A DNA stretch of 64,000 nucleotides from an uncultured Gammaproteobacteria bacterium (GCA_963975985.1 CAXBIY010000007.1:11374-75373); one strand, 5' to 3'; counted from the stretch's first letter, positions 488 to 35,891 are shown. The notes: a model not told the origin generated them from the letters alone. Numbers and translations are program-made.

Positions 488-543
488 AGGATTGTCATGA
501 GGGTTGAAGTGTTTCAACCCTCACGTCCTTAATCCTCAATCCT
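488..543. repeat. Heptamer (AGGATTG-type) inverted hairpin cassette
   Basis: AGGATTG..TGAGGGTTGAA-gtgt-TTCAACCCTCA..TAATCCT CAATCCT; same heptamer as the array at 17305. Confidence 0.7.
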
Positions 544-551
544 GGTAGTCT

Positions 552-1535
552 ATGCAACATCTTGACGATATTATTCAACAAGCGAAATCTGATATCGCTT
601 GCGTAACTGATCTTAATCAGTTGCAACAAATTCGCGCGCAATATCTCGGTAAAAAAGGAAAAGTCACCGACTTAATGAAAAGTCTTGGTGATGTCTCAGC
701 CGAAGAAAAGCCTAAACTTGGCCAAGCCATCAATCAAGCCAAGCAACAAATTCAACAATTTTCTGATGAGAAAATTCAATCCCTTAAACAAGCCGAACTT
801 AACGCAGCTTTAGCTAACGAAACGATTGATGTCACCTTGCCCGGGCGTGGAGAAGCGCAGGGAAGTTTGCATCCCGTTACCTTAGTGCGCCGTCGTGTGG
901 AAGCTTTTTTTCAAAGCATTGGTTTTAGCGTTGAGGAAGGCCCTGAAGTTGAAGATGAATATCACAACTTTGAAGCCTTAAATATTCCAGATAACCATCC
1001 TGCTCGTGCCGATTTTGATACGTTCTATTTCGGCGACGGCAAATTATTGCGAACCCATACGTCTCCCGTACAAGTGCGCGTGATGGAGAATTCACAACCG
1101 CCTATTCGTGTGATTGCCCCCGGTCGCGTTTATCGGAATGATTCCGATGCGACACATTCCCCTATGTTTAACCAAGTCGAATTGTTGATGATCGACGAAG
1201 GCTTAACGTTTGCTGATTTAAAAGGCATGTTACAAAGTTTTCTCAATCACTTTTTTGAAACCAATGTCGAGATGCGTTTGCGTCCTTCTTATTTTCCCTT
1301 CACTGAACCTTCTGCCGAAGTCGATGTGCGTTGGGGTGAAAACGATTGGTTGGAAATCTTGGGTTGCGGTATGGTGCATCCTAAAGTATTGCAAATGGCC
1401 AATATCGACAGCGAAAAATACACCGGTTTCGCCTTCGGTTTAGGCTTAGATCGATTAGCGATGTTACGTTATGGCATTGATGACTTACGAGTGATGTTTG
1501 ATAACGATATCCGTTTTTTAAAACAGTTTGCTTAA
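552..1535 (+). CDS. pheS: Phenylalanine--tRNA ligase alpha subunit
   Basis: [17 protein letters not shown] and [13 protein letters not shown] motifs. Confidence 0.99.
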
Positions 1536-1545
1536 TGAGAACAGT

Positions 1546-33738: not shown

Positions 33739-33742
33739 GGGG

Positions 33743-35764
33743 ATGATGATGAGCGAATATAAGAATTGGCAATTAAATAAAGATGATGATGGTATCCTTT
33801 GGTTAACGCTAGATCGCCACGATGCAAGTGTTAACTCTTTAAATCACGAAGTTCTATCTGAGTTTAAACAAATTCTAAGTGAGATTGAAGATAACTTGCC
33901 AACAGGTGTCGTGATTCAGTCGGGCAAAAAAACCGGTTTCATTGCCGGTGCTGACATCGAGCAATTTGTGAAGATTAAAAACGTTAACGAAGCCATAAGC
34001 CTTGTGCGTGAAGGTCAAAAGATTTTTGACCAACTGGAAGCTTTGAAAACACCAACCGTTGCCATGATTAATGGTTTCTGTATGGGTGGTGGAACAGAGT
34101 TATCGCTAGCCTGTGATTATCGAGTTGCGTGTGACGATGATAAAACGCGTTTGGGTTTACCCGAAGTAAAATTGGGCATTCATCCTGGTTGGGGTGGCAC
34201 AGTCCGTTTGCCACGTTTAGTTGGCGCGATTAAAGCCATGGATGTGATTTTGTCAGGTCGTAATGTTCGTGCTAAATCTGCTGCTAAAATGGGTATGGTT
34301 GATGTTGCTGTGCCAGAACGTCACCTAGTCACAGCCACGCGTGATTTGATTTTGAAAAAGCGTCCTAAGCACAAGGCAAGCTTTATGGAACGCATGACTA
34401 ATGTTTCATTTGTACGTCCATTATTGGCAAAACAAATGACAAAACAAGTGGCGAGCAAAGCGCGCAAAGATCACTACCCAGCACCTTACGCGGTGATTAA
34501 AAATTGGGTCAGTGATGGTGCGAAGGGCGAAGCAGCCATGATCACTGAAGCCAATTCAATGGGTGAATTGTTGGTAACGCCAACGTCACGTAATTTGGTC
34601 CGTGTGTTCTTTTTACAAGATCAAATGAAAGGTTTAGCCAAAGGTATTAAATACAAACCTAAGCATGTACATGTCATTGGTGCTGGCACTATGGGTGGTG
34701 ATATTGCTGCTTGGTGTGCATTCAGAGGTTTTAATGTCACCTTGCAGGATCGTGAAGCGAAATTTATTTCACCTGCTATTAAACGTGCTTACAAGCTTTA
34801 CAAAAAGAAATTGAAAAAGCCTGTGCCGATTCGCGAGTGTATGGATCGCCTAATGCCAGATGTTGATGGTGAGGGTGTGAAAAAAGCTGACATTATTATC
34901 GAAGCAATTTTTGAAAACTTGGAAGTGAAACAGCAGTTGTTTAAGGATTTAGAAAGCAAAGCTAAGCCAGAAGCTATTTTGGCCTCTAACACATCCAGTA
35001 TCCCACTCGATGAAATCAGTTCGGTGATGAGTAACCCAGGTCGGCTAGTTGGCATCCACTTCTTTAACCCTGTTGCAATGATGCCTCTTGTTGAAGTTGT
35101 GAAAAGCGAAAGCACGGATGAAACCATTGCCAATCACGCCATTAAATTTGTGACGAGCTTAGGCAAATTCCCCGTACCAGTGAAAAGCAAACCTGGCTTC
35201 TTAGTTAATCGTTGTTTAATGCCGTACATGATGGAAGCGATGGCATTATTAGACGAAGGTGTTTCAGGCCCAGCTATCGATAAAGCCGCTAAAGCCTTTG
35301 GTATGCCAATGGGTCCTATCGAATTAGGTGATACAGTCGGTTTAGATGTCTGTTTGTCAGTAGCCAAAAACTTAAGCCAAGCCTTCGGTGGTGATGTGCC
35401 TAAGAGTTTAGAAAAAATTGTCGAGTCTGGCAATTTCGGTAAGAAAACGGGTAAAGGTTTTTATGAATATAAAAAGGGTAAGCCGGTTAAATCAGAAGGC
35501 GGTAATGTGCCTCAAGATGCCGTTGCTCGCATGATTAATCGTATGTTAAACGAATGTGCTGCATGTTTACGTGAAGGTGTGGTTGATGACATTGGCTTGC
35601 TCGATGGTGGCATGATCTTCGGAACGGGTTTTGCTCCATTCCGTGGCGGCCCAATGAAGTATGCGCAAGACAAAGGTGTTGCTGCTGTGAAGCAAGAGAT
35701 GCAAGAGTTAGCCAGTAAATATGGTAGTCGTTTTAAACCGGATGCTTATTGGGATACGATGTAA
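33743..35764 (+). CDS. fadJ: Fatty acid oxidation complex alpha subunit (enoyl-CoA hydratase/3-hydroxyacyl-CoA dehydrogenase)
   Basis: FIAGADI, GLPEVKLG, GAGTMG, SNTSS and HFFNP motifs. Confidence 0.88.
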   Translation: MMMSEYKNWQLNKDDDGILWLTLDRHDASVNSLNHEVLSEFKQILSEIEDNLPTGVVIQSGKKTGFIAGADIEQFVKIKNVNEAISLVREGQKIFDQLEALKTPTVAMINGFCMGGGTELSLACDYRVACDDDKTRLGLPEVKLGIHPGWGGTVRLPRLVGAIKAMDVILSGRNVRAKSAAKMGMVDVAVPERHLVTATRDLILKKRPKHKASFMERMTNVSFVRPLLAKQMTKQVASKARKDHYPAPYAVIKNWVSDGAKGEAAMITEANSMGELLVTPTSRNLVRVFFLQDQMKGLAKGIKYKPKHVHVIGAGTMGGDIAAWCAFRGFNVTLQDREAKFISPAIKRAYKLYKKKLKKPVPIRECMDRLMPDVDGEGVKKADIIIEAIFENLEVKQQLFKDLESKAKPEAILASNTSSIPLDEISSVMSNPGRLVGIHFFNPVAMMPLVEVVKSESTDETIANHAIKFVTSLGKFPVPVKSKPGFLVNRCLMPYMMEAMALLDEGVSGPAIDKAAKAFGMPMGPIELGDTVGLDVCLSVAKNLSQAFGGDVPKSLEKIVESGNFGKKTGKGFYEYKKGKPVKSEGGNVPQDAVARMINRMLNECAACLREGVVDDIGLLDGGMIFGTGFAPFRGGPMKYAQDKGVAAVKQEMQELASKYGSRFKPDAYWDTM

Positions 35765-35770
35765 GCGCTA

Positions 35771-35891
35771 AGGGCTTAGGTATTAGGCTTTAGGCAGTGT
35801 TGTCGTCACGTGAGCGTGACAATTGTTTAAGATATTGGGTTGACGGCTCATTTCAATGGCTTATGCTGCTTTCTATGATGCTCTAAGCCCC
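35771..35891. repeat. Heptamer inverted-array cassette, homolog of the 7301 copy
   Basis: AGGGCTT AGGTATT AGGCTTT AGGC-9nt-GTCACG-TGAG-CGTGAC..TTTAAGATA ... CTAAGCCC. Confidence 0.85.

Follow-up and report, generated by a model that had tools for sequence, protein, structure and literature searches.

The DNA analysed here, referred to as the window, is a stretch of 64,000 nucleotides from an uncultured gammaproteobacterium (GCA_963975985.1, CAXBIY010000007.1:11374-75373). It corresponds to C7:11374-75373 of a genome assembly of 2.24 Mb in 32 contigs with 42.5% GC, which we call G000. Between positions 488 and 35,891, a number of spacers carry repeats of seven nucleotides (heptamers), and direct reading of the sequence at the named sites shows units that are rich in G on the left side and rich in C on the right side. 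We found that these sites represent copies or relics of a palindromic type of cassette in which tandem heptamers form the arms, the G-rich one coming first on either strand. At least two unit families are dispersed in the genome, AGGGCTT with its variants and AGGATTG. A set of copies with a common core is called family 1 below.

Eight spacers of the window had been named as cassettes in the original prediction. Six of them are clear cassettes or arrays; the remaining two are a single-unit palindrome (site 11409) and a weak site (16733). Sites 7301, 12214, 17305 and 35771 are complete or near-complete cassettes. The flanking genes belong to the ordinary housekeeping set of gammaproteobacteria and are unrelated to one another. 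The features are as follows, in window positions.

488..543, no strand assigned: cassette in the rplT/pheS spacer, with an AGGATTG unit at 488-494 and hairpin stems at 498-508 and 513-523
530-543: C arm of site 488, two right units (TAATCCT CAATCCT), preceded by the 11-bp hairpin
7301..7436, plus strand: family-1 element of 136 bp in the fdxA (+) / map (-) spacer, nhmmer E 2.5e-19
7301-7331: left arm of site 7301, (AGGTATT)3 AGGTGTT
7342-7347 with 7352-7357: GC hairpin of site 7301, GCCGCG with CGCGGC; the core extends to about 7411
7412-7436: right arm of site 7301, (CTAAGCC)3.6
11414-11423 and 11452-11461, no strand assigned: single-unit inverted repeat in the frr/uppS spacer (site 11409), CAGGGTATAG / CTATTCCCTG
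11433-11443: inner 4-bp hairpin of site 11409, TCGC-GAA-GCGA, fold z -3.5
12215..12345, no strand assigned: cassette in the uppS/cdsA spacer (site 12214), with a degenerate G arm at 12215-12253 (AGAGTTT/GGAGTTT type)
12258-12307: inner hairpin of site 12214 (22-nt arms), with the C arm at 12324-12345
16733..16790, plus strand: degenerate G-type units in the bamA/skp spacer, no C arm; a weak member or relic
17305..17362, no strand assigned: cassette in the skp/lpxD spacer, with (AGGATTG)4.3 at 17305-17334 starting on the skp TAG stop codon
about 17343-17362: degenerate C arm of site 17305, fold z -5.2
21793..21818, plus strand: lone G-type array, TTAGGGC x3.7, in the spacer between a divergent oxidoreductase gene and rnhB
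35771..35891, plus strand: family-1 element in the fadJ-like/yciA spacer, nhmmer E 1.6e-16
35771-35791: left arm of site 35771 (three G units), with the core at 35792-35877 and one remnant C unit near 35884-35890

Tandem Repeats Finder (TRF) reports period-7 rows in the window at 514-543, 7301-7331, 7412-7436, 12215-12253, 12327-12345, 17305-17334 and 21793-21818. Site 11409 has the layout of a cassette and no tandem array; an array of the GTATAGG type is present elsewhere in the genome, at C1:389292.

Stem-forming folds at five window sites have z scores of -9.2, -5.2, -4.4, -3.5 and -3.1. The lowest belongs to site 12214 (-58.6 kcal/mol), whose 32-nt arms are 78% complementary, and the RNA fold of site 488 reaches -23.5 kcal/mol (z -4.4). 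For the element at 7301, the plus strand has z -1.7 and the minus strand z -3.3. At site 16733 the fold (z -1.4) is equalled by 22 of 200 shuffles, and at 21793, where the G strand is directed away from the nearer gene, z is -0.45. An Rfam scan of the window gave a tRNA at 4670-4743 as its sole match. The RNase III gene (rnc, 244.8 bits) lies at 56490-57122, about 20 kb from the last cassette.

Heptamer arrays and the conserved-core family across the genome

Compared to an order-3 Markov shuffle of the 2.24-Mb genome, arrays of period 7 are in clear excess, with 70 at a TRF score of at least 36 in the real sequence and 1 in the shuffled one. The control periods give 9 real and 0 shuffled arrays for period 6, and 4 and 3 for period 8. 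Likewise, AGG phased at 7 nt at least three times is found 43 times compared to 2 in the shuffle, and CCT 33 times compared to 0; counts of AGG or CCT at phases other than 7 range from 1 to 10. A self-match scan that is agnostic to the unit finds a period-7 array in 72 of 1325 spacers, the corresponding numbers for periods 6, 8 and 9 being 5, 11 and 11. The commonest units are AGGGCTT (32 TRF arrays) and AGGATTG (25).

The arrays also have a polarity. Adjacent arrays at most 300 nt apart comprise 17 pairs with the G-rich array before the C-rich one (G->C), 2 G-G pairs and no C->G pair, and none are found in the shuffle. With a filter for the common units, 16 of 18 G->C pairs are spaced 42-126 nt apart, and the 12 C->G neighbours are 484-4621 nt apart and thus represent cassettes flanking one gene on both sides. 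Because a G->C pair reads G->C from either strand, this polarity is independent of strand. Accordingly, the intergenic family of inverted heptamer arrays proposed from the window alone is real.

Lone arrays follow a related rule: the G-rich strand is directed away from the nearer gene in 39 of them and is not in 9, some of these exceptions being start-codon miscalls, as genes were called crudely as the longest open reading frames (ORFs). The remaining arrays are paired (32), lie within crude ORF calls of at least 100 aa (10) or are found at contig ends (3).

Four contig ends lie within a perfect 55-nt (CTAAGCC)n run (C7:90741-90795, C15:1-55, C29:1-55 and C29:6969-7023), meaning that the longest arrays are beyond the span of the short-read assembly and break it. 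Contig C29, with arrays at both ends, was rejected as a candidate, its content being ordinary housekeeping DNA.

Paired cassettes have more in common than their arms, namely a non-repetitive sequence between them. A profile of the family-1 core (nhmmer) matches 36 places in the genome, 32 of them with E < 1e-3, including 7301 and 35771. The elements measure 120-150 bp and occupy at least 32 intergenic sites in both orientations. For example, the copy at 7301 and the one at C19:14169-14260 are 96% identical across 92 nt. The unit sequence had been thought to differ between sites with only the layout being kept; this is half right, as 7301 and 35771 belong to one family with a common core.

Across 26 aligned full copies, the 5' half consists of four left units that differ from one another and keep a fixed order, a short linker and a hairpin with a 6-bp GC stem and a 4-nt loop, followed by a conserved A/T-rich box. 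The 3' half has about 35 nt in two subtypes, a conserved run and then 1 to at least 8 identical TAAGCCC units. The core is about 90 nt long, non-repetitive and asymmetric. Homology among the 26 copies does not extend past the arms into the flanks, which are unrelated. A small size, inverted repeats at the ends, numerous dispersed copies and unrelated flanks are the traits of MITEs (miniature inverted-repeat transposable elements), and the proposal that the family is non-autonomous and dispersed is borne out.

The hairpin is under pairing constraint in the alignment: 94.8% of 155 cells pair, 5 of the 6 pairs show changes on both sides, and these values are matched by 0-1 of 500 column shuffles, with slid controls pairing at 13-56%. 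At site 35771, for example, the stem is a compensated pair, GTCACG / CGTGAC. RNAalifold over the family-1 alignment supports no helix besides this 6-bp hairpin. Some copies suggested to the eye a further stem, TTTAAGAT / ATCTTAAA, which was rejected as unsupported across the alignment. Exact matches to the hairpin fall within heptamer elements in 15 of 15 cases.

Between co-directional genes the core is oriented 14:8, which indicates no strand preference; 6 others lie between convergent genes and 2 between divergent ones. In three short forms the middle of the element is missing through internal deletion, and at two places a short form adjoins a long one. In many copies the ends read TAAGGG... 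and ...CCCTAA, the TAA belonging to the unit. We found no transposase gene belonging to family 1, and a DNA search of 40 relatives did not find its core.

These copies also tell us how the two arms behave. As a fixed series of four unlike units accompanies the core in 26 copies, the left arm was copied with it and not made locally. The number of right-arm units, from 1 to at least 8, fits slippage in place, as does a length difference at 7412-7436. There, a 267-nt contig, present in two DNA runs of one sample and covering 7418-7668, shows 0 other letters and 14 gap letters in the summary count; the 14 letters would be two heptamer units. The contigs at 7418-7668 are of low depth and come from a sample labelled mollusc metagenome (share of sampled words 0.18), from which we claim no habitat. 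The three DNA runs otherwise gave scattered short pieces, mostly of other organisms.

The AGGATTG family is looser. Two of its copies have a common core, similar to the inner hairpin of site 12214, and the other members are mostly lone arrays that begin at or beside a stop codon or end shortly ahead of a ribosome-binding site. At C1:207589-207633, two unit families have arrays side by side.

Other repeats fill the same spacers. All-against-all clustering of spacers was uninformative for family counts, with 344 of 1258 spacers in one component, because several unrelated repeat families co-occupy spacers and so merge the clusters. One of these repeats is a GC hairpin of about 30 nt (about 130 copies by 14-mer count; for example G000:C2:131850-131912). 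Another is a repetitive extragenic palindrome (REP) headed by GTAG, with about 110 copies by the same count. This REP has the arrangement known for REP-associated tyrosine transposases (RAYT) at G000:C28:1-1460, where a 172-aa Y1 transposase-like gene (C28:374-892) has GTAG REPs on both sides; the repeats flanking it are GTAG-headed and not heptamers.

The genome holds five candidate enzyme genes, of which two are Y1 (HUH) transposase-like, two are small GIY-YIG genes and one encodes a reverse transcriptase. Four of them (both Y1 genes, the C1 GIY-YIG gene and the reverse transcriptase gene) have neither an array nor a family-1 copy within 3 kb. The C3 GIY-YIG gene has one two-unit match to the strict pattern about 1.6 kb away, within another ORF. 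The reverse transcriptase is that of a type VI retron (G000:C4:214118-215309, near a contig end), with matches to RT_VI (236 bits) and to the helix-turn-helix family HTH_VI (81.5 bits). No transposase lies within any G->C pair, the wide pairs (1202 and 2877 nt) enclosing nuo genes and groEL.

The IVP gene and the sister genus

The original prediction had likened the cassettes to known heptamer repeats and to heptamer arms flanking four-helix-bundle genes of the kind found in intervening sequences (IVS) of 23S rRNA, and had suggested looking for arrays that enclose an ORF. The Pfam family of these genes is PF05635 (23S_rRNA_IVP, also S23p), and we refer to them as IVP genes. Both analogies hold, as the loci and the survey below indicate, and arrays enclosing such an ORF do exist. 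None of the eight window sites has a PF05635 gene between its arms, and the window holds no cognate enzyme gene, as had been stated.

The only IVP gene in G000 is at C2:91636-91776, in the spacer between a yicC-like gene and gmk, with 34.7 bits (cut-off 33.8). It is decayed: an N-terminal piece lies in one frame and the last 40 model positions in another. In the cassette around it (C2:91571-91859), the left arm consists of AGGATTG-type units and the right arm of (CAATCCT)4. A second, weak PF05635 match at C3:199759 was discarded as spurious, since it lies within a gene on the opposite strand. No 23S rRNA gene is present in the G000 assembly.

Among five relatives from the same family, only one, G003, is positive for PF05635, and it is also the only one with AGG-type arrays. 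Its IVP gene, which is intact and encodes 121 aa (132 bits; a weak bAvd-like match as well), is found between (GTTGTGA)4 and (TCACAAC)4 in the secG/tRNA-Leu spacer. The remnant in G000 is 63% identical to the G003 protein over 24 residues. In G000 the gap from secG to tRNA-Leu is 5 nt, the same spacer that holds the intact IVP cassette in G003, and a degenerate heptamer cassette (G000:C5:77090-77260) lies just past tRNA-Leu, downstream of secG.

The association extends to the class level. We surveyed 401 genomes, defining as array-holding those with at least one run of four AGGNNTN units: 38 genomes hold arrays and 75 hold PF05635. The gene is present in 22 of the 38 array-holding genomes compared to 53 of the 363 others (one-sided Fisher p 1.2e-8), and in 15 of the 16 genomes with at least 10 array matches compared to 60 of the 385 others (p 5e-11). 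If genome G146 is omitted, these counts become 21 of 37 and 14 of 15. Several genomes that are positive for the IVP gene and negative for the pattern have arms built of other units.

To relate gene and arms at single loci, we examined the flanks of 21 IVP genes (the 20 best matches outside G146 plus the one of G003, with three pairs of loci each from a single genus). Based on inverted arms scoring at least 14 and at least 4 standard deviations above shuffles, 13 of the 21 are bracketed, with the G-rich arm first in 10, the C-rich arm first in 2 and a tie in 1. Five further genes have weaker heptamer-like arms with scores of 9-13.5. Judged by eye, the arms that flank the IVP gene are built of the unit that is dispersed most commonly in the same genome in G000, G003, G055, G110 and G334. 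Our literature search found no publication that joins intergenic heptamer arrays to a PF05635/S23p gene.

G003 belongs to a sister genus (median reciprocal-best-hit identity 53%, 345 pairs), and our comparison covers 753 kb of it. Its heptamers fall into two families, AGGATTG and G/CAGTTGT, and its close pairs are again 7 G->C and 0 C->G. Its cassettes often carry other hairpin repeats between the arms, and a hairpin related to the GC hairpin of about 30 nt described above occupies the middles of G003 heptamer cassettes.

Of the 96 junctions that are adjacent in both genomes, a period-7 array is found at 11 in G003, at 4 in G000 and at 3 in both (joint occupancy, one-sided Fisher p 0.004), and arrays of periods 6, 8 and 9 co-occupy none. 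The shared junctions are as follows.

rplT-pheS: window site 488
Spacer at C8:82100
kdsA-eno

The rplT-pheS spacer of G003 contains a 13-unit inverted array with a different unit. A fourth shared spacer, outside this sample, is the fadJ-like/yciA spacer of site 35771, whose G003 ortholog (L080) is an AGGATTG-armed cassette. At all four shared junctions, units and cores are unlike between the two genomes. Some junctions that are filled in one genome have a short spacer in the other, an example being hisS-yfgM, which measures 39 nt in G000.

Close relatives were sought with BamA scans of genome contigs and metagenome contigs, which gave distant matches (21-23%) and one locus at 55% identity without period-7 arrays. 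In this closest metagenome relative (L014:4238-7609), lpxD directly follows bamA, there is no skp and the spacers are 0-10 nt long. LpxD orthologues in four genomes of the family are 40-43% identical.

Origin of the cassettes

The copies are thus dispersed and have a structured core, arms of varying length, a fixed polarity and a link to the IVP gene both at the level of genomes and at single loci. As a whole, these observations are best explained if heptamer-armed cassettes are copied between sites, are relatives of IVS-type elements without an ORF, and are renewed through their arms; we consider this account probable, with some reserve. In particular, we infer that the cassettes are ORF-less relatives of the type of element, known from rRNA IVS, that has an S23p four-helix-bundle gene in its loop.

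In such a scheme, cassettes would be co-transcribed with the flanking genes, their arms would pair as a long stem, and RNase III or other RNases might act on this stem. The number of right-arm units would change by replication slippage. The arms could also serve as homology for spread and renewal, through gene conversion from one cassette to another or through insertion into cassettes already present. With renewal of this kind, cassettes would stay at the same junctions and yet change in sequence.

A number of results weigh against this account. The family-1 core has no likeness to the IVP cassette, so that descent from it would be drawn from the layout only, and we found no autonomous copy with family-1 arms, the sole IVP gene of G000 being a remnant with another unit family. 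The arms at 7301 pair as 5-bp helices separated by 2-nt loops; such split helices, in an element whose plus strand folds no better than shuffles, would make a poor substrate for RNase III. No target-site duplication is readable in family 1, because the ends of the element are themselves repeats. In the class survey the pattern detects AGG-type units only and related genomes are not independent, and 8 of the 21 IVP genes fail the bracket threshold. Finally, the statistic for shared junctions comes from 3 junctions only and, given G003 spacers longer than 100 nt, the probability of 3 of 4 is about 0.05; these junctions may simply be tolerant of insertions.

A more specific version gives the protein a part. 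Here the heptamer-armed hairpins would be the ORF-less progeny of one widespread type of element whose PF05635 protein copies, renews or lengthens the arms, an idea that we put forward tentatively. The protein would do so without a transposase, perhaps through Avd-like nucleic-acid binding as in diversity-generating retroelements. Alternatively, it might direct the addition of repeats onto the 3' ends of a broken target, which would alone yield the universal G-first polarity with arms on the gene side.

Among the alternatives, a doubtful one, and the one that survives best, is that arrays arise entirely where they stand, through polymerase slippage at the ends of genes, with complementarity maintained by hairpin selection or cruciform repair and without any movement. 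The variable right arms (1 to at least 8 copies), the 14-letter length difference at one site in a contig of the same organism, the two unit families side by side at C1:207589-207633 and the same junctions filled with unlike units in two genera all speak for it. So do the arrays of Xanthomonas, which lie between the same genes in two species and vary in length and sequence, as far as the available text describes them (PMC4692102). Local slippage cannot yield a core of about 90 nt with a fixed order of left units at unrelated sites in 26 copies, nor two copies that are 96% identical across 92 nt. The earlier suggestion that the arms are made or homogenised in place is therefore retained for the right arm, with its variable length, and for the unlike units at shared junctions, and given up for the left arm, which travels with the core.

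We find it harder still to accept that the arrays are functional signals at gene boundaries, spread by selection, whether as G-quadruplexes (G4), as Shine-Dalgarno-like GAGGA with its anti-Shine-Dalgarno counterpart CCUC, or as sites of a repeat-binding regulator. The strict geometry of lone arrays (39 compared to 9) invites this explanation, as do G arms that often begin on a stop codon and C arms that stop 5-25 nt ahead of a start codon. There is also precedent in the portions of two reports available to us: GGGAATC repeats form G4 in vitro (Rehm et al., PMC4692102), and TAACTGA repeats were proposed to be translational regulators (MacGregor 2015, PMC4679880). However, only 10 of the 71 arrays listed have at least four tracts of three G, none of these 10 being in the window. 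AGGATTG units carry GG only and have no such tract, and the longest AGGGCTT run of the window, at 7412-7436, has three. G4 formation can therefore not be a general property here. Furthermore, the flanking genes are unrelated housekeeping genes, the geometry is automatic if lone arrays are half-cassettes in short spacers, and units that differ at the same junction between sister genera are unexpected for a conserved protein or ribosome site.

Least probable is that these are classical MITEs or REPs moved by an encoded transposase, be it an HUH enzyme such as a RAYT, a nuclease of the GIY-YIG type or a reverse transcriptase: the elements are small, with inverted ends and tens of copies, and the genome does encode two Y1, two small GIY-YIG and one reverse transcriptase candidates, but the C28 Y1 gene has its own GTAG-type REPs, four of the five candidates have no array within 3 kb, the reverse transcriptase is part of a type VI retron with its helix-turn-helix partner, and no G->C pair contains a transposase, the wide ones holding nuo genes and groEL.

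Comparison with known repeats and intervening sequences

The origin and function of bacterial heptamer repeats are not agreed, despite reports from 2015 in Xanthomonas, Nostoc and Beggiatoaceae. G000 makes the question testable in three respects: some arrays form the termini of an element that is copied and has a structured core, cassettes keep their gene junctions across genera while the unit sequence turns over, and array-rich genomes nearly always have an Avd-like IVP gene that is usually framed by such arms.

According to the available text of Rehm et al. 2015 (PMC4692102), the G-rich heptamers GGGAATC of Xanthomonas and GGGGAYT of Nostoc fit the pattern RGGNNTN, with about 90% of their arrays in intergenic DNA, a copy number that differs between relatives and an unexplained function. 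In Xanthomonas, GGGAATC arrays form 70-75 convergent pairs per genome, with one array per strand, the average distance being 28 nt to the ORF 5' of the array compared to 160 nt to the other one, whatever the ORF direction (PMC4692102).

On this evidence, G000 resembles the type described there, with period-7 units far above chance and above neighbouring periods, convergent pairs, and a rule for lone arrays (39 compared to 9) that is the same geometry as in Xanthomonas. It differs in its units, AGGGCTT and AGGATTG, and in that most of its arrays are unable to form a three-tetrad G4. A conserved core, a dispersed family and the link to S23p/IVP genes are found in G000 and are absent from the portions of that report available to us (PMC4692102).

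Closely comparable is the IVS of Coxiella burnetii. In the accessible text of Warrier et al. 2016 (PMC4990558), RNase III cuts its terminal stem of 28 bp, its S23p ORF is decaying, and beside the ORF there is a tandem GACAGAT x3 whose number varies between strains. The C2 cassette likewise has terminal inverted repeats, a decaying S23p/IVP ORF between them and heptamers. As described in that text, the Coxiella IVS lies in helix 45 of 23S rRNA and is excised by RNase III, whereas the G000 cassettes lie between protein genes and, unlike it, all but one are without an ORF. PF05635 itself resembles the Avd accessory protein of diversity-generating retroelements, as stated in the part of PMC10053308 available to us.

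A comparison with small palindromic intergenic repeats leads to differences as well. In G000 the RAYT-like gene accompanies the GTAG repeat and not the heptamer cassettes. REPs, with the bacterial interspersed mosaic elements (BIME) they compose, and the Correia MITEs of Neisseria occur in tens to hundreds of copies and are co-transcribed in operons; they have a species-specific consensus and are clustered or nested in the same spacers, and their arms are not built of simple repeats in tandem. For REPs there is a cognate RAYT, and insertion of Correia elements leaves a duplicated TA target.

Reports of tandem heptamers at the boundaries of bacterial genes go back to about 1990, when the short tandemly repeated repetitive (STRR) sequences of cyanobacteria were described. 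STRR units differ from those of G000, and the G000 host is gammaproteobacterial by gene content and kinship and not a heterocystous cyanobacterium.

For the Beggiatoaceae, the accessible portion of MacGregor 2015 (PMC4679880) gives 169 direct sets of TAACTGA repeats and one indirect set, strand-specific and upstream of start codons. Like STRR and TAACTGA repeats, the G000 arrays are tandem heptamers at the boundaries of housekeeping genes, and such repeats are patchy across phyla. On the evidence of that portion, they differ in that G000 arrays are mostly paired and inverted and follow a strand-symmetric rule, in contrast to TAACTGA repeats, which are almost all direct.

The G000 cassettes therefore belong to an already described and unexplained class of bacterial heptamer repeats, to which we add a conserved-core family, shared junctions and a test of the link to the IVP gene. 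If the IVP gene is not cognate, cassettes are still markers that break short-read assemblies and vary in length within populations. If the PF05635 protein does act on the arms, then the heptamer repeats of cyanobacteria (STRR), Xanthomonas and Beggiatoa, the IVS of rRNA and orphan S23p genes would share one cause.

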